Positions 3,499 through 57,243 of a DNA stretch of 64,000 nucleotides are shown piece after piece. Each line of letters starts with the position of its first letter. Within the stretch, counting starts at the first letter, position 1. The notes under the pieces were generated by a model that worked only from the letters and a program-made list of their open reading frames with translations, did no database searches and was not told the origin of the DNA. Origin of the DNA: Escherichia coli. GTDB taxonomy: Bacteria; Pseudomonadota; Gammaproteobacteria; Enterobacterales; Enterobacteriaceae. The stretch lies in NCBI RefSeq assembly GCF_022846255.1, contig NZ_AP025682.1; one strand, written 5' to 3'. Made by a program: the position numbers and the translations under genes.

Positions 3499-3585
3499 AA
3501 AAAATAAGCCCGTGTAAGGGAGATTACACAGGCTAAGGAGGTGGTTCCTGGTACAGCTAGCATTTTATGGGTTATGTTTTTCAGC
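3499..3585 (-). ncRNA. cyaR: CyaR (RyeE) Hfq-dependent sRNA
   Basis: The reverse complement of 3499-3585 matches the 87-nt CyaR sequence as I recall it (GCTGAAAAACATAACCCATAAAATGCTAGCTGTACCAGGAACCACCTCCTTAGCC...CGGGCTTATTTTTT), including its intrinsic terminator, and lies immediately 3' of yegQ as expected. Confidence 0.85.
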
Positions 3586-3619
3586 GAAACGGATGATAAC
3601 CTTAATAAATGCAGCTGTA

Positions 3620-16000: not shown

Positions 16001-16184
16001 CTGGATAAAGCGTGACCACCTGAATGGTTGGATAGTCCACTTCCGGCAGCGCCGAAACGGGCAGGGCGCGATAACCGATAATCCCGGCGAGTAAGATCGC
16101 CACCATCAGCAGCGTGGTGGCGACAGGACGCATAATAAACAGGCGCGACGGGCCGCCTGTGCTGCTCGGGGGTAACACCTGCAT
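13062..16184 (-). CDS. mdtB: RND multidrug efflux pump subunit MdtB
   Basis: 1040 aa AcrB-like RND transporter, paralogous to the adjacent MdtC. Confidence 0.95.
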
Positions 16185-17431
16185 CAGGAGCGCGCTCCTT
16201 TTTTCGCGTATTCGCGGCTGGTGGCTTTATCTTCCGGGGTAGTGGCGCTCTGGGCTTCCACGACTTCCACTTTCGCCCCTTCGGTCAGGCGATCAATGCC
16301 GTCCGTCACTACGCGGTCGCCCGCAGAAATACCTGCACGGATCACCACTTTCTGACTGTCCTGAATGCCCGGTGTCACCAGATGTTTGCTGACTTTGTTT
16401 TCGCTATTCAGTACCCAGACAAAATGGCCTTCGTTGCCCATTTGCAGTGCGGCGGTGGGGATCACCACGGCGTTTTGTTCGGTATCGACTAACATGCGAG
16501 CGTTAACAAACTGATTAGGGAAAAGCGCATCATCCTGATTATTAAAGCGAGCTTTCACTTTAATCGTACCGGTAGTGGCATCGATTTGGTTATCGAGACT
16601 TAACAGCGTGCCTTCACTTAACTTCTTCGAGTTGGTGCGATCCCAGGCTTCTACCACCAGCGGTTTTCCGGCTTTTTGCGCCTGTACAACGGTGGCGATA
16701 TCGCTTTCCGGCAGAGTAAAGACCAGATCGATAGGATGCGTCTGGGTGATCACCACAATCCCGGTGGTGTCGCCACTGGAGATTTGGTTACCAACATCAA
16801 CCTGCTTGAGACCAACGCGACCATCAACTGGTGCGGTGATACGGCTCCAGTCGAGTTGCAGCTGTGCGCTGGCGACGCTTGCTTCATCAGCCTTAATGGT
16901 ACCTTCGGTTTCACTGACCAGCGCTTGTTGGGCATCCAGTTCCTGACGAGATACGAGATTGGTTTTTGCCAGTTGTTGATAACGCGCCAGGTCACGGCGG
17001 GCGTTGGCGAGCGTGGCTTTATCTTTTGCCAGTTGGCCCTGGGCTTGTGCTAATGCAACTTTGAACTGGCTTGGGTCAATTTCTGCCAGTAAATCGCCTG
17101 CTTTGACCTGCTGGCCTTCCTGGAAATGTAACGCCATCAGTTGACCGTCCACGCGGCTGCGCACCGTAACAGTATTAGCGGCGGTAATGGTGCCAAGCCC
17201 GGTGAGGTAACGCGGAACAGCCTGTTCTACTGCGGTCGCCGCCTGAACCGGAGCTAATGGGCCGGCACGCATACCACGGCGACCACCCGCTGGCGATTGC
17301 TGCGCTTGTTTCGTCGCCCCAGGGGCTGCACTCTGGGAGTCATTGCGGCCTTGCCAGAACCAGAATGCGGCGATGGCGGCGATAACCACCACGATTACGA
17401 TTACCCAACGGGATTTATAACTGCCTTTCAT
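16184..17431 (-). CDS. mdtA: RND efflux membrane fusion (periplasmic adaptor) protein MdtA
   Basis: 415 aa from ATG at 17431 ([16 protein letters not shown]...). The supplied ORF start at 17578 adds 49 residues upstream that I reject. Confidence 0.9.
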
Positions 17432-17484
17432 CGTTAAGAGTTTCTCTTCCTGAAACGTTTCGCGGAATGATACTAGTGTAGCCA

Positions 17485-17502
17485 GCCAATAAGGGAGAAA
17501 AA
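17485..17502 (-). promoter_or_regulatory. putative BaeR box upstream of mdtA (TTTTTCTCCCTTATTGGC on minus strand)
   Basis: Close match to the recalled BaeR consensus TTTTTCTCCATDATTGGC, about 55-70 bp upstream of the mdtA start. Confidence 0.45.
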
Positions 17503-17669
17503 TGGAGGAATTATGAAACACTGTCGGGAATCGTCTGAATGACGGGCACATTTGCGAGCACGCATCCAGTAATAACACATGAAACTATTTTATCTACGCG
17601 TTAGCGATAGACTGCTTGCATGGCGAAAGGAGATAAGCCGACGATTTCAGCGGGACGCTGAAACGGAAA

Positions 17670-17815
17670 AGCCCCTCCCGAGGAAGGGGCCTTAAATAAG
17701 GAAAGGGTCATGATGAAGTGGATCATCATCGTGGTGCTCTTAGTGATTAGCTACCCAGCATACTAAGACTACCAGGGCGGGGGAAACCCCGCTCTACCCT
17801 CACTCCTGAAAGTAT
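17670..17815 (-). ncRNA. sibA: SibA-like antisense sRNA (type I antitoxin); ends approximate
   Basis: The minus strand carries an intrinsic terminator (aaggcccc-ttcctcggga-ggggctt + TTTTCCGTTT) at about 17675-17704, antisense to and fully overlapping the ibs ORF. The 5' end is not determinable from sequence. Confidence 0.5.
17710..17766 (+). CDS. ibsA: Ibs-family hydrophobic toxic peptide, 18 aa (MMKWIIIVVLLVISYPAY)
   Basis: Translated directly from the sequence; RBS aaggaaagg upstream; characteristic Ibs peptide. Confidence 0.7.
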   Translation: MMKWIIIVVLLVISYPAY

Positions 17816-17994
17816 GCCTTCACGGTCCAATTGTCAATCCGCAGACTTTGCAGTCTGCGATCCTGCCAGCAAATATTCTTTGCGAGTCGTTACGCAATAA
17901 TCACACTTGAAACTATTTTATCCGCAAGTCAGCGATAGACTGCATACAGGGCGAAAGGAGGTAAGCCGAAGATTTCAGCGGGACGCTGAAACGG

Positions 17995-18140
17995 GAAAGC
18001 CCCTCCCGAGGAAGGGGCCTTAAATAAGGAAAGGGTCATGATGAAGCTACTCATCATCGTGGTGCTCTTAGTCATTAGCTGGCCAGCTTACTAAGACTAC
18101 CAGGGCGGGGGAAACCCCGCTCTACCCTCACTCCTGAAAT
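17995..18140 (-). ncRNA. sibB: SibB-like antisense sRNA (type I antitoxin); ends approximate
   Basis: Second copy of the same terminator hairpin on the minus strand at about 17997-18022, antisense to the second ibs ORF. Confidence 0.5.
18038..18094 (+). CDS. ibsB: Ibs-family hydrophobic toxic peptide, 18 aa (MMKLLIIVVLLVISWPAY)
   Basis: Translated directly from the sequence; second repeat unit. Confidence 0.7.
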   Translation: MMKLLIIVVLLVISWPAY

Positions 18141-18311
18141 TATGTCACTCCGCCCTTAGTGTCAATCGACGGCTCTCCGTTCTTGCGAGGCGAATAGCAA
18201 AATTTTCTGCGCCGCCGGGCCTAATTCTGAAAGTTTCTTCGTTTGCTCTTATTTCATTATTGCAATCGGTATGATACCGGACCTCAATAATTCTCTAAGA
18301 AAGGATTTCTT

Positions 18312-18971
18312 ATGAGCGAACAAATCACGTTTGCCACCAGCGATTTTGCCAGTAACCCGGAACCACGTTGCCCCTGCATTTTGCTGCTGGATGTTTCTGG
18401 CTCGATGAGCGGCAGACCCATTAATGAACTTAACGCCGGATTGGTTACCTTTCGCGATGAGCTGCTTGCCGACCCGCTGGCCTTAAAAAGAGTGGAACTC
18501 GGTATTGTGACGTTCGGCCCAGTGCATGTGGAACAACCCTTTACCAGCGCCGCTAATTTTTTCCCGCCCATCCTGTTTGCCCATGGGGATACACCAATGG
18601 GCGCCGCCATTACCAAAGCCCTGAATATGGTTGAGGAGCGCAAACGTGAGTATCGCGCCAATGGTATTTCCTATTATCGTCCGTGGATTTTCCTGATTAC
18701 CGATGGCGCACCAACCGATGAGTGGCAGGCTGCTGCCAACAAGGTGTTTCAGGGGGAAGAAGATAAGAAGTTTGCCTTCTTTTCCATCGGTGTTCAGGGG
18801 GCGGATATGAAGACGCTGGCCCAAATCAGCGTTCGTCAGCCTTTGCCATTGCAGGGATTACAATTCCGTGAACTGTTTAGCTGGTTATCCAGTTCGCTGC
18901 GTTCGGTTTCCCGCTCCACGCCGGGAACGGAAGTTGTGCTGGAAGCGCCAAAAGGCTGGACGTCAGTGTGA
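18312..18971 (+). CDS. yegL: von Willebrand factor A (TerY-like) domain protein YegL
   Basis: 219 aa; MIDAS motif DVSGSMSG in a VWA fold; first gene of a three-gene operon. Confidence 0.9.
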
Positions 18972-19729
18972 GCTGGCGTCTGGTCTATGCATCAACCGTT
19001 GGAACGTCGCACATCAGCGCGGACTTGCCTTGCCAGGATGCCTGCCAGATGCAGGTTGCCTGGTTAAATGACCAGCAGCCATTATTGTCGGTATTTGTCG
19101 CTGATGGCGCAGGCAGTGTCTCGCAGGGTGGCGAAGGTGCGATGCTCGCCGTCAATGAAGCGATGGCTTATATGTCGCAAAAAGTGCAGGGCGGGGAATT
19201 GGGGCTTAATGATGTCCTCGCAACGGACATTGTGCTGACCATTCGTCAGCGACTTTTTGCCGAGGCGGAAGCCAAAGAATTAGCGGTTCGCGATTTTGCC
19301 TGCACGTTTTTGGGATTGATTTCATCAGCTAATGGCACCTTGATTATGCAGATTGGCGATGGCGGCGTGGTGGTAGATTTGGGTCACGGTTTGCAACTGC
19401 CGCTCACGCCGATGGTGGGGGAATATGCCAATATGACGCACTTCATTACCGATGACGATGCTGTTTCCAGACTGGAAACTTACACCAGTACTGAGCGTGC
19501 GCATAAAGTTGCAGCATTTACGGATGGTATTCAGCGACTGGCGTTAAATATGCTGGATAATTCTCCGCATGTGCCTTTCTTTACCCCGTTTTTCAATGGA
19601 CTGGCGTCAGCAACGCAGGAACAACTCGATTTATTACCTGAATTGTTAAAGCAGTTTTTGTCCAGCCCGACGGTAAACGAGCGTACCGATGATGATAAAA
19701 CGTTGGCACTGGCGCTGTGGTTACCATGA
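18968..19729 (+). CDS. yegK: PP2C-family Ser/Thr protein phosphatase YegK (PphC)
   Basis: 253 aa; GTG start overlaps the yegL stop (GTGA); PP2C-like motifs (FVADGAGS..., IGDGG). Confidence 0.88.
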
Positions 19730-21666
19730 AACCCACTTTATATACTGCTACTGGTGAGTGCGTTACGCCTGGCCGTGAACTGGGCAAAGGCGGTGAAGGT
19801 GCGGTTTATGATATCGAGGAGTTTGCCGATAGCGTCGCCAAGATTTATCACACGCCGCCACCCGCCTTAAAACAGGACAAACTTGCCTTTATGGCTGCGA
19901 CAGCTGACGCGCAGTTGTTGAATTATGTCGCCTGGCCGCAGGCAACGCTTCACGGTGGACGAGGCGGAAAAGTTATCGGTTTTATGATGCCAAAAGTTTC
20001 TGGTAAAGAACCGATTCATATGATCTATAGCCCGGCACATCGTCGCCAGAGTTACCCTCATTGTGCGTGGGATTTTCTACTCTATGTTGCGCGCAATATT
20101 GCTTCATCTTTTGCTACTGTTCATGAGCACGGGCACGTCGTGGGTGACGTAAACCAGAACAGCTTTATGGTAGGTCGCGACAGCAAAGTGGTGTTGATTG
20201 ATAGCGACTCCTTTCAGATTAATGCCAATGGTACACTGCATTTATGCGAAGTCGGCGTGTCGCATTTTACGCCGCCAGAGCTGCAAACCATGCCATCATT
20301 TGTCGGCTTTGAACGCACAGAAAATCACGATAATTTTGGCCTTGCGTTGCTGATATTTCACATCTTGTTTGGTGGGCGGCATCCTTATTCCGGTGTACCG
20401 CTTATCTCTGATGCGGGTAATGCGCTGGAGACGGATATTGCCCATTTCCGTTATGCCTACGCGTCAGATAATCAGCGACGTGGTTTAAAACCGCCGCCAC
20501 GATCGATTCCGCTGTCGATGTTACCGGGCGATGTTGAAGCCATGTTTCAGCAGGCATTCACGGAAAGTGGCGTGGCAACCGGGCGTCCGACGGCAAAAGC
20601 GTGGGTAGCGGCACTTGATTTACTACGCCAACAGTTAAAGAAATGTACCGTTTCGGCAATGCATGTTTACCCCGCTCATTTGACTGACTGCCCGTGGTGT
20701 GCGCTGGATAATCAAGGCGTTATCTATTTTATTGATCTCGGCGAAGAGGTCATTACCACCGGCGGTGATTTTGTGCTGGCGAGAGTCTGGGCGATGGTGA
20801 TGGCGTCAGTAGCACCGCCAGCATTGCAATTACCATTACCCGATCATTTCCAACCGACTGGCAGGCCGCTTCCTTTAGGCCTGTTAAGGCGTGAATACAT
20901 CATTCTGATTGAGATCGCACTGTCAGCGTTATCGCTGCTGCTTTGCGGCCTTCAGACAGAACCACGTTATATTATTTTGGTTCCTGTGCTGTCGGCTATC
21001 TGGATTATTGGCAGCCTGACAAGCAAAGCGTACAAAGCAGAAATCCAGCAACGCCGTGAGGCGTTTAATCGTGCGAAAATGGACTATGACCATTTAGTCA
21101 GCCAGATCCAACAGTTGGGCGGGCTGGAAGGTTTTATCGCCAAACGGACGATGCTCGAAAAAATGAAGGACGAAATTCTTGGGTTACCGGAAGAAGAAAA
21201 GCGCGATCTGGCAGCACTTCAGGACACCGCAAGGGAACGGCAGAAGCAGAAGTTTCTGGAGGGATTTTTTATTGATGTTGCCTCTATTCCCGGCGTTGGC
21301 CCTGCGCGTAAAGCGGCGTTACGGTCCTTTGGTATTGAAACAGCAGCGGATGTTACCCGACGGAGCGTTAAGCAAGTGAAAGGTTTTGGTGATCATCTGA
21401 CCCAGGCGGTTATCGACTGGAAAGCGAGCTGTGAACGCCGTTTTTTGTTCAGGCCGAACGAAGCGGTAACGCCTGCAGACAGACAAGCGGTAATGGCAAA
21501 AATGGCCGCCAAACGACATCGGCTGGAATCGGCGCTGACTGTCGGTGCGACAGAGTTGCAGCGATTCCGCCTTCATGCTCCAGCACGGACCATGCCGTTG
21601 ATGGAACCGCTACGTCAGGCGGCAGAAAAACTGGCTCAGGCGCAGGCTGATTTAAGCCGTTGCTGA
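19726..21666 (+). CDS. yegI: eukaryotic-like Ser/Thr protein kinase YegI with C-terminal transmembrane, coiled-coil and helix-hairpin-helix regions
   Basis: ATG at 19726 overlaps the yegK stop (ATGA). Gly-rich loop LGKGGEGAVY, a VAIK-like lysine (VAKIY) and a catalytic-loop-like VGDVNQNS; predicted TM helices (IILIEIALSALSLLLCGL, ILVPVLSAIWIIGSL) and an HhH-like IPGVGPARKAALRSFGI. Confidence 0.88.
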   Translation: MKPTLYTATGECVTPGRELGKGGEGAVYDIEEFADSVAKIYHTPPPALKQDKLAFMAATADAQLLNYVAWPQATLHGGRGGKVIGFMMPKVSGKEPIHMIYSPAHRRQSYPHCAWDFLLYVARNIASSFATVHEHGHVVGDVNQNSFMVGRDSKVVLIDSDSFQINANGTLHLCEVGVSHFTPPELQTMPSFVGFERTENHDNFGLALLIFHILFGGRHPYSGVPLISDAGNALETDIAHFRYAYASDNQRRGLKPPPRSIPLSMLPGDVEAMFQQAFTESGVATGRPTAKAWVAALDLLRQQLKKCTVSAMHVYPAHLTDCPWCALDNQGVIYFIDLGEEVITTGGDFVLARVWAMVMASVAPPALQLPLPDHFQPTGRPLPLGLLRREYIILIEIALSALSLLLCGLQTEPRYIILVPVLSAIWIIGSLTSKAYKAEIQQRREAFNRAKMDYDHLVSQIQQLGGLEGFIAKRTMLEKMKDEILGLPEEEKRDLAALQDTARERQKQKFLEGFFIDVASIPGVGPARKAALRSFGIETAADVTRRSVKQVKGFGDHLTQAVIDWKASCERRFLFRPNEAVTPADRQAVMAKMAAKRHRLESALTVGATELQRFRLHAPARTMPLMEPLRQAAEKLAQAQADLSRC

Positions 21667-47503: not shown

Positions 47504-47603
47504 CCGTTGAATAATCAACCGGATTAATTCTCCGGTAAATAACGAAAAAACAAAATTGGCCGTTTCGGTCAGGGCCAACTATTGCCTGAAAAAGGGTAAC
47601 GAC

Positions 47604-57204: not shown

Positions 57205-57243
57205 CAGTGCTCTGGTAGCTGTAAAGCCAGGGGCGGTAGCGTG
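57205..57243 (+). promoter_or_regulatory. JUMPstart element with ops site (GGCGGTAGCGTG at 57232-57243) in the O-antigen operon leader
   Basis: Exact ops consensus preceded by GGTAGC, about 75 bp upstream of rmlB; the same 30-nt core (agccaggggcggtagcgtg) as the cps leader copy. Confidence 0.75.

Follow-up and report, generated by a model that had tools for sequence, protein, structure and literature searches.

The intergenic region between mdtA and yegL in a 64,000-nt stretch of Escherichia coli DNA (hereafter the window) almost certainly contains two complete tandem Ibs/Sib type I toxin–antitoxin modules, set at a conserved chromosomal site. The original prediction of tandem Ibs/Sib repeats between these genes was confirmed by a repeat search, by matches to the Rfam family RF00113, by ORFs identical to toxins annotated in RefSeq and by colinear flanking genes. 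This is the site of ibsA/sibA and ibsB/sibB in the annotation of K-12 MG1655, and an mdtA–yegL Ibs/Sib locus is present in 5419/5426 complete E. coli genomes, where it is annotated as Ibs toxins. The modules are thus already known, and what the window holds is an uncommon combination of catalogued alleles.

A single direct-repeat family was found by the repeat search, with one copy at 17551–17839 (unit 1, the reference copy) and the other at 17879–18167 (unit 2). The two copies share 86% ungapped identity and align over 328 columns with no gaps. Two units of about 325 bp each had been predicted; their number stands, and the computed start-to-start spacing is 328 bp. The tandem repeat and its paired ORFs are real and far beyond chance. 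Both flanking genes lie outside the modules: mdtA on the left (16184–17431, minus strand), placed by colinear alignment with the annotated mdtA of A37 and other genomes, and yegL on the right (18312–18971, plus strand), which encodes a vWA-domain protein and was placed by colinear alignment to annotated genomes. A longer ORF on the mdtA side (16184–17578) is an upstream GTG extension of mdtA.

Each unit encodes one short peptide of the Ibs type on the plus strand. The translated ORFs, ibs-1 (17710–17766) and ibs-2 (18038–18094), give the 18-aa peptides MMKWIIIVVLLVISYPAY and MMKLLIIVVLLVISWPAY, and a purine-rich Shine–Dalgarno region precedes ibs-1 at 17698–17707. Both peptides are strongly hydrophobic (GRAVY 1.89 and 2.13, respectively), as had been claimed for them, and they differ at exactly the three predicted positions (W4/L4, I5/L5 and Y15/W15). 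Compared with the K-12 Ibs peptides, both follow the family pattern of 18–19 aa, an MMK or MMR start, a hydrophobic core and an aromatic C-terminus (..S[FYW]xAY). At the DNA level, ibs-1 has 100% identity over 75 nt to annotated Ibs family coding sequences in about 129 E. coli records (for example WP_100249716.1 in IMT5155), and ibs-2 has 100% identity over 75 nt to such sequences in about 393 records, among them UTI89, S88 and ATCC 11775 (WP_100249772.1). RefSeq labels both WP_100249716.1 (unit 1) and WP_100249772.1 (unit 2) as "type I toxin-antitoxin system Ibs family toxin". Overproduced Ibs peptides have been reported to insert into the inner membrane and to cause depolarisation or lower ATP, as published for IbsC and for Salmonella IbsA. 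By analogy with these two, both 18-aa peptides of the window, when overproduced, would be expected to insert into the inner membrane and to bring about depolarisation or a drop in ATP.

Opposite each ORF, the minus strand carries a full-length match to the Sib antisense RNA family. The Rfam search that had been proposed as a check found SIB_RNA (RF00113, model positions 1–147) twice, at 17695–17837 in unit 1 (137 bits) and at 18023–18165 in unit 2 (141 bits), where the gathering score is 56 bits (E of about 1e-29 for these two minus-strand matches). They are the sole Sib matches in the 64-kb window; a plus-strand match of 25 bits falls under the gathering score. Each extends over the full ibs ORF as well as its ribosome-binding site. 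This arrangement is that of the Sib family, in which an RNA of about 140 nt lies opposite the ibs ORF over its full length and opposite its translation initiation region (PMC2943612). From RF00113, alignment to the K-12 Sib RNAs (sibA–E) and folding, we place Sib-1 at 17666–17801 and Sib-2 at 17994–18129, both as predicted 136-nt minus-strand RNAs with a +1 G, the ends of Sib-1 being transferred from annotated K-12 sibB. So placed, the two RNAs cover the ORFs at 17710–17766 and 18038–18094 together with their Shine–Dalgarno regions. Predicted folds are stable (−60.1 kcal/mol, z −4.28 for Sib-1; −60.5 kcal/mol, z −4.40 for Sib-2) and have the architecture of K-12 SibB.

Putative promoters and terminators bound both antisense RNAs. 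The candidate sib-1 promoter (17809–17837, minus strand) consists of a −35 TTGACA (17837–17832), a 17-nt spacer and a −10 TACTTT (17814–17809), followed after 7 nt by the +1 G at 17801; its hexamers are those found upstream of K-12 sibB. The candidate sib-2 promoter (18137–18165, minus strand) has a −35 TTGACA (18165–18160), a 17-nt spacer and a −10 TAATTT (18142–18137), with the +1 G at 18129 again 7 nt away, and is identical to the K-12 sibA promoter flank. By their sequence and by the Rfam alignment, both are predicted to be sigma-70-type promoters. The sib-1 promoter is absent from the list of a consensus promoter scan because its −10 hexamer falls under the match threshold of the scan. 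K-12 sibA and sibB RNAs have been detected experimentally with a +1 G (PMC12956327), and the promoter hexamers shared with K-12 sibB and sibA support transcription of sib-1 and sib-2, which are probably expressed from these promoters. A terminator hairpin on the opposite strand of each unit had also been predicted, and 11-bp terminal hairpins are indeed folded in both Sib RNAs. In Sib-1 the hairpin (17669–17693, minus strand) is followed by CUUUUCCGUUU, and the terminator scan reports a terminator-like site there at 17688–17672 on the minus strand with the tail CTTTTCCGTT. In Sib-2 the hairpin (17997–18021, minus strand) is followed by CUUUCCCGUUU; its tail CUUUCC has too few U for the terminator-scan threshold and equals the annotated 3′ end of K-12 SibB.

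The ibs mRNA 5′ ends can be estimated by homology to the K-12 ibs genes. A plus-strand hairpin at 17645–17663, TTTCAGCG-gga-CGCTGAAA, would mark the 5′ end of the ibs-1 mRNA, and on the same basis a hairpin at 17973–17991 would mark that of the ibs-2 mRNA. The core of this 5′ hairpin (CAGC..GCTG) is conserved upstream of 5/5 K-12 ibs genes. The ibsC mRNA begins 18 nt past the 3′ end of SibC (PMC2943612), and by analogy the ibs-1 start site is estimated to lie at about 17648–17653 and that of ibs-2 at about 17976–17981. The search for an ibs promoter found no good −35/−10 pair, and the plus-strand consensus scan was empty; the candidate −10 hexamers TAGACT (17608–17613) and GACGAT (17640–17645) lack a convincing −35. 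Several other short ORFs were also set aside. Two 38-codon upstream ORFs (17579–17695 and 17907–18023, plus strand) were rejected as leader peptides: one unit has ATG as its start codon and the other TTG, K-12 and O157 have AGG there, the copies disagree at 8/38 residues, and the mRNA 5′ end probably falls downstream of this codon. ORFs within the Sib RNAs (17601–17729 and 17929–18075, minus strand) lack a Shine–Dalgarno sequence and extend through the terminator. A mini-ORF with a strong Shine–Dalgarno sequence upstream of K-12 ibsA (ATGATTTCAGCGGGACGCTGA) has its ATG replaced by ACG or AAG in the window and so is not conserved.

Differences between the two antisense RNAs are confined to a few positions, most of them in two loops. 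The relative that has been dissected by experiment, K-12 ibsC/sibC (Han et al. 2010, PMC2943612), belongs to the same family and shares the P1–P7 architecture, with its TRD1 (P5 loop) and TRD2 (J1/7) at aligning positions, but unlike the window modules it is a single-copy system between fau and serA, encodes a 19-aa peptide, has a +1 A and differs at many positions in both TRDs. The published SibC numbering (G49CU51, C107–C113) maps exactly onto our Sib alignment, although the TRD map so transferred derives from a different Sib subgroup from that of the window units. In unit 1 the TRD1 equivalent is the P5-loop region at 17745–17760 (Sib positions 42–57, ibs codons 12–17), and the TRD2 equivalent is the predicted single-stranded J1/7 at 17689–17710, which contains the anti-Shine–Dalgarno and anti-AUG sequences and is identical in unit 2 (both TRDs as defined in PMC2943612). 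The only differences between Sib-1 and Sib-2 are at positions 42, 48, 49 and 57 in the P5 loop region (TRD1), at positions 80–83, which are four P6-loop bases opposite ibs codons 4–5, and at position 135, one tail base. The P6-loop patch of unit 1 is TGGA (17719–17722; codons 4–5, W-I). Elsewhere the two RNAs share an identical 51-nt run over the AUG, the Shine–Dalgarno region and the terminator, and they have 0 mismatches in the TRD2 window, where no K-12 Sib pair has fewer than 4.

Repression would be expected to follow the scheme established in K-12, where repression by base-pairing has been demonstrated for Sib/ibs pairs. Each Sib RNA, as a cis-antisense transcript, would have complete complementarity to its ibs ORF, including the start codon, and to the Shine–Dalgarno region. 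By analogy with the SibC/ibsC experiments, Sib would silence ibs through base-pairing initiated at loops, with the P5 loop (TRD1) touching the 3′ half of the ibs ORF and the single-stranded J1/7 (TRD2) touching the ribosome-binding site, and pairing would then spread, block translation and lead to mRNA decay. Because TRD2 is identical and the differences are limited to the P5-loop region, the P6 loop and a tail base, any discrimination between the two units would have to rest on TRD1 and the P6 loop. The 51-nt identity through TRD2, unlike any K-12 pair, makes cross-repression between the units via TRD2 plausible.

An alternative is that the modules are fully orthogonal, each Sib repressing its own ibs alone and the TRD1 and P6-loop differences preventing productive non-cognate pairing. 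Orthogonality is reported for most K-12 pairs, in some cases in the face of extensive shared sequence: SibA and SibE are identical over TRD2 and the P6 loop (+90 to +113), yet ibsE escapes repression by SibA (Han et al. 2010, PMC2943612), and SibD and SibE are reported to be specific (PMC2943612) despite a 36-nt identical run that reaches into the TRD2 core. Furthermore, all eight internal differences between the window RNAs fall in the two loops that start RNA–RNA contact, and in each of the sampled strains with more than one unit, neither loop is shared between co-resident 18-aa units. In SibC, moreover, TRD2 worked only with a further contact in the P6 loop, an element whose first base is not the same here (ACUU vs GCUU). 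Against this, either TRD alone was enough in SibC, a contiguous 22–25-bp match through one TRD sufficed to retarget SibC to ibsD, and the non-cognate TRD2 match in the window is 51 nt long with 0 mismatches, a situation seen in no K-12 pair. Weighing both sides, we regard full orthogonality as slightly improbable, with cross-repression between the two units via TRD2 a plausible outcome.

Comparison with K-12 places the array at the same locus but with a different gene content. K-12 ibsB/sibB (MG1655, b4668/b4437), the mdtA-proximal module, matches the window in site, 18-aa peptide, 136-nt Sib with +1 G and fold, and its mdtA-side flank, like its sib promoter hexamers, is that of unit 1. K-12 IbsB is MMKLLIIVVLLVISFPAY; unit 1 instead has W4, I5 and Y15, and unit 2 has W15. 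K-12 sibB further differs from the window in its TRD1 loop sequence and at Sib position 110 just 5′ of the terminator (A versus T). K-12 ibsA/sibA (b4667/b4436), the yegL-proximal module, resembles unit 2 in position and flanks, including the sibA −35/−10 and the stretch up to yegL. Its core, in contrast, encodes a 19-aa peptide, MMKHVIILVILLVISFQAY, and a SibA of 144 nt that carries insertions within P2 and ahead of P6; unit 2 has instead an 18-aa IbsB-type peptide and a 136-nt Sib. The window thus lacks a K-12-type ibsA + ibsB pair: its yegL-proximal unit is an IbsB-type core in ibsA-type flanks, so that the array is orthologous to the locus and not to the K-12 gene pair. The K-12 names ibsA and ibsB should not be assigned to it by position. 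In both window units the core is of the 18-aa IbsB type, and no 19-aa IbsA unit is present.

The closest relatives of the array suggest how its allele combination arose. UTI89/A37-type arrays (WP_012767742.1 + WP_100249772.1) likewise consist of two 18-aa units without ibsA, with a perfect hairpin at the junction (described below); their unit 2 is identical to that of the window. Over 17326–18435 (1.1 kb) the sole difference between A37 and the window is the four bases at 17719–17722, while the flanking genes differ by about 1.7%. These bases change unit 1 codons 4–5 from ATA CTC (I-L) in the UTI89/A37 type to TGG ATC (W-I) in the window, and increase the P6-loop difference between co-resident Sib RNAs from 1 nt to 4 nt. 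The exact allele pair of the window was found in no complete genome. We infer that the array is of the UTI89/A37 type and that its unit 1 probably gained the P6-loop allele TGGA of other lineages through a short recombination or gene-conversion tract, a scenario built on a single cluster of 4 nt and on few sampled arrays. Origin of the P6-loop alleles by hairpin-loop inversion (template switching) was rejected, as the loop variants are not mutual reverse complements.

A broader version of this scenario would make TRD1 and the 4-nt P6 loop interchangeable specificity cassettes, shuffled by short conversion tracts and kept different in co-resident units by selection against cross-talk, with the window as a rare recombinant. 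We put this forward tentatively and consider it more doubtful than not. Across fifteen 18-aa-type units from nine strains, all polymorphism falls in the P5 apical region, the P6 loop, position 110 or the tail, with the loop alleles joined in several different combinations.

The junction between the units carries a perfect palindrome with an 8-bp stem and a 4-nt loop (cgcagact-ttgc-agtctgcg, 17840–17859), which adjoins the sib-1 −35 box on its upstream side. A hairpin after unit 1 that is missing after unit 2 had been predicted at 17830–17849. The hairpin is perfect, and unit 2 indeed lacks it, the corresponding sequence there having a z-score of about 0, but the true position of the hairpin is 10 bases to the right. 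Folding is stable on both strands (plus, −12.7 kcal/mol, z −3.4; minus, −15.5 kcal/mol, z −4.0). The palindrome might be functional, either as an insulator or terminator between the units or as the site of a dimeric regulator, with its centre some 48 bp upstream of where sib-1 starts. Its perfect GC-rich stem, its occurrence at every inter-unit junction sampled with absence after the last unit, and its place between the divergent sib-1 and ibs-2 promoter regions would all fit such a role. Conversely, the palindrome is perfect in A37, UTI89 and RIVM_C029670 but imperfect in K-12, O157, IMT5155 and 7/2, where a G in one arm yields one G–T pair (C–A on the other strand) with no compensatory change. 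In addition, each repeat starts with the unit-boundary motif TTTGCGAG(T/C), to which the 3′ half of the palindrome is similar, and the palindrome may be a by-product of unit joining. As an intrinsic terminator it was rejected, since there is no U-tract on either strand and the terminator scan did not list it. Overall, a function for the palindrome seems unlikely.

That the units are decayed or silent relics, DNA of the "QUAD/SIB repeat" type with no working toxin–antitoxin pairs in this strain, is highly improbable: the consensus search did not identify an ibs promoter and K-12 IbsB itself is annotated only as a "putative toxic peptide", but both ORFs are intact with Shine–Dalgarno regions, both sib promoters match K-12 hexamers, both terminators are intact, identical copies of the two alleles are found in about 129 and about 393 genomes, and variation restricted to loops, with stems, AUG, Shine–Dalgarno region and terminator invariant in 15 units, is a pattern of constraint and not of decay.

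Similar genomic arrangements occur in unrelated type I systems. The chromosomal ldr/rdl and zorO-orzO/zorP-orzP loci also encode small hydrophobic toxins repressed by small RNAs and are tandem duplications within a single intergenic region, their copy number varying with the strain (PMC2887945). They differ from Ibs/Sib in sequence, to which they are unrelated, and in their antitoxins, which overlap the 5′ UTR only or are divergently encoded; Sib, unlike these, extends across the entire ORF together with the translation initiation region.

The Ibs/Sib family, its tandem layout at mdtA–yegL and its copy-number variation between strains have all been published, and the peptides are annotated by RefSeq, so that the significance of the window beyond correct annotation is small and its added value descriptive. 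What the array illustrates is that natural Ibs/Sib variation is concentrated in the two loops that start antisense contact, and a pair with identical TRD2 offers a convenient natural test of target discrimination by Sib RNAs. If the two loops are indeed exchangeable cassettes, such arrays would amount to a natural experiment in which TRD2 is no discriminator within the IbsB-type subgroup, and either loop–loop contacts alone would set specificity or both units would be cross-regulated as one module.

The 880-bp intergenic region between mdtA (16184-17431, - strand) and yegL (18312-18971, + strand) carries a single direct-repeat family of two copies at 17551-18167 (17551-17839 and 17879-18167), with a start-to-start spacing of 328 bp and 86% ungapped identity. 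Both flanking genes are colinear with annotated genomes, which places the array where the original prediction put it. The two units align over 328 columns without gaps, and the central ~210 columns are nearly identical. Each carries an ibs ORF on the + strand, ibs-1 (17710-17766) encoding MMKWIIIVVLLVISYPAY and ibs-2 (18038-18094) encoding MMKLLIIVVLLVISWPAY. As predicted, the translated peptides differ at positions 4, 5, and 15, where the substitutions retain hydrophobic or aromatic character. For both genes, a 75-nt ORF stretch is 100% identical to annotated CDSs: ~129 records for ibs-1, for example APEC IMT5155 (RefSeq WP_100249716.1), and ~393 for ibs-2, for example UTI89, S88, and ATCC 11775 (WP_100249772.1). 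The intergenic region is matched in 5419/5426 complete E. coli genomes, where its ORFs carry the label "type I toxin-antitoxin system Ibs family toxin", and K-12 MG1655 has sibA/ibsA and sibB/ibsB annotated at the same site.

The antisense strand agrees. In the proposed Rfam search, the - strand matched SIB_RNA (RF00113) twice at full length, scoring 137 and 141 bits where the gathering score is 56 bits, and the 64-kb window gave no further Sib match. Ends transferred by aligning the - strand to five annotated K-12 sib genes predict Sib-1 at 17801-17666 and Sib-2 at 18129-17994, each 136 nt with a +1 G, a length and starting base common to K-12 SibB. Their predicted fold also has the SibB architecture (z-scores -4.3 and -4.4), with a closing stem P1, three internal hairpins, a single-stranded anti-Shine-Dalgarno stretch, and a terminator hairpin. 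The expected opposite-strand terminator is present as a GC-rich hairpin with a U-rich tail just upstream of each ibs ORF. Predicted - strand promoters have canonical geometry, with TTGACA, 17 nt, TACTTT (sib-1) or TAATTT (sib-2), and 7 nt to the +1 G. All sequence-level defining features of a Sib RNA and an Ibs toxin were tested, and all are present. These matches, together with the identical RefSeq CDSs and the K-12 genes at the site, support the Ibs/Sib type I identity originally proposed. The array is not the K-12 ibsA plus ibsB pair because it lacks an IbsA-type unit, neither peptide matching the 19-aa K-12 IbsA.

The finding is already known, since the family, its tandem layout within one intergenic region, and its copy-number variation have been published, including seven ibs genes in O157:H7 Sakai (PMC2887945; PMC2943612), and RefSeq already lists both peptide alleles. 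New here are only the allele combination, not seen among 5426 complete genomes, and a TRD2 that does not differ between the units. Separately, 8 of the 18264 places matching the intergenic region in the ecoli_genomes collection lie on plasmids, though the family is regarded as chromosomal.

Sib RNAs are constitutively expressed and ~140 nt long; each covers the whole ibs ORF with its translation initiation region and represses its own toxin (PMC2943612). SibC recognizes its target through two independent domains, TRD1 (the P5 loop, targeting the ORF) and TRD2 (single-stranded J1/7, targeting the ribosome-binding region). Pairing begins at these domains and extends from there, and the ibs mRNA is degraded; 22-25 contiguous matching bp through either one sufficed to retarget SibC to ibsD (PMC2943612). 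Ibs toxins are alpha-helical membrane peptides; IbsC overproduction depolarizes the membrane within minutes (PMC8309996), and according to a preprint, IbsA of Salmonella lowers ATP and binds the a and b subunits of Fo. The modules here most likely work as the published family does.

Among 19 units from nine genomes, flanks track array position while cores are mosaic. Three flank types occur: mdtA-side, inter-unit junction, and yegL-side with a sibA-type promoter. Coding units by Ibs residues 4, 5, and 15, the window reads [WI-Y] [LL-W] from mdtA to yegL, compared with [LL-F = IbsB] [IbsA] in K-12-like JME64, [IL-Y] [WI-F] [IbsA] in O157:H7, [WI-Y] [LL-F] [IbsA] in 7/2, [WI-Y] [IbsA] in IMT5155, [IL-Y] [LL-W] in UTI89 and A37, [IL-Y] [RL-W] in RIVM_C029670, and a single unit in E200086. 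Unit 2 of the window has an IbsB-type core within K-12 ibsA flanks. Sampling 30 of the 5422 matching records at even spacing gives rough frequencies only: two 18-aa units without ibsA in ~1/4, the K-12 arrangement in ~1/3, three units in ~1/3, and a single unit in a few. Strain A37 is identical to the window over 17326-18435 save four contiguous bases at 17719-17722 (TGGA here, ATAC in A37), and its flanking genes differ by ~1.7%. The 403 nt spanning both ibs ORFs have no 100% match in complete genomes, the best (99.0%) differing by this same patch. We infer that the patch is a short recombination or conversion tract importing a loop allele that other lineages commonly carry.

The predicted perfect palindrome after unit 1 (cgcagact-ttgc-agtctgcg) exists, but at 17840-17859 rather than 17830-17849, a 10-base slip. 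Its fold has significant stability on either strand, unlike that of the corresponding stretch downstream of unit 2, which lacks the palindrome as claimed. The palindrome adjoins the sib-1 -35 box directly upstream, separates the diverging promoter regions of sib-1 and ibs-2, and occurs at every sampled inter-unit junction. Only the A37/UTI89/RIVM lineage has the perfect form; at the other junctions one arm carries an uncompensated G-T. It lacks a following U-tract and is missing from the terminator scan's list. The TTTGCGAG motif opening each unit is similar to its 3′ half, so the palindrome may be a mere by-product of repeat-unit joining.

Several other features were observed. A Shine-Dalgarno-like AAGGAG(A/G) and an 8-bp hairpin (TTTCAGCG-gga-CGCTGAAA) are conserved ahead of every ibsA/B-type ORF (+ strand; 17626-17663 and 17954-17991, and upstream of K-12 ibsA); only the K-12 ibsA unit has ATG plus six codons after AAGGAGG, where the window has ACG or AAG. 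The 38-codon ORFs found ahead of the two ibs ORFs (17579-17695 and 17907-18023, +) were judged non-coding because their start is not conserved (ATG/TTG, AGG in K-12/O157) and 8/38 residues differ between copies. The intergenic region has a sole sigma-70 consensus match (TTCAGA, 18 nt, CATAAT; 17510-17539, -), oriented toward mdtA and perhaps the promoter of that gene, in a scan whose number of matches equals chance expectation. Downstream, yegJ is absent from 18968-21666, and pphC/yegK (18968-19729, +) directly overlaps yegI (19717-21666, +), as in A37 and O157:H7; JME64 and E200086 carry yegJ between them on the opposite strand, making this an insertion/deletion polymorphism adjoining the array. 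Rfam also matched full-length CyaR/RyeE (3502-3587, -; RF00112, 100.7 bits), an algC RNA motif (47550-47599, +; RF02929, 78.2 bits versus a gathering score of 33.8), and two JUMPstart elements (RF01707; 33039-33077, +, 53.8 bits; 57205-57243, +, 60 bits), which are expected upstream of polysaccharide gene clusters.

Published SibC numbering fits our alignment exactly, with G49CU51 and C107-C113 where the paper puts them (PMC2943612). Sib-1 and Sib-2 differ only at positions 42, 48, 49, and 57 (P5 apical, TRD1), 80-83 (the P6 loop, corresponding to ibs codons 4-5), and 135 (tail). The three Ibs residue differences therefore reflect, on the coding strand, the variation in the two antisense loops. 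Across fifteen 18-aa-type units, real polymorphism is likewise limited to positions 42-57, 80-83, 110, and 135, apparent variation at 1-18 and 131-132 reflecting single-base indels in one unit each. RIVM_C029670 unit 2 (1607-1663 of that locus) encodes MMKRLIIVVLLVISWPAY (WP_100273070.1), in which P6-loop allele GTCG gives residue 4 as a charged R, another sign of free loop-sequence variation at codons 4-5. In the modeled ibs mRNA, loops mirror those of Sib and the Shine-Dalgarno region is unpaired.

Sib-1 and Sib-2 share an uninterrupted 51-nt run over the anti-AUG, TRD2, and terminator. With no mismatches in the TRD2 window, versus at least 4 in every K-12 Sib pair, cross-repression between the units through TRD2 is plausible. 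However, SibC TRD2 required an extra P6-loop contact (Han et al. 2010, PMC2943612), whose first base differs here; ibsE is not repressed by SibA despite local identity; and SibD and SibE, which are reported to be specific, have a common 36-nt run extending into TRD2. We consider it possible, and on balance rather doubtful, that the two loops serve as specificity cassettes that are shuffled, with TRD2 mediating cross-regulation in arrays of this type; if true, this would be of modest interest.
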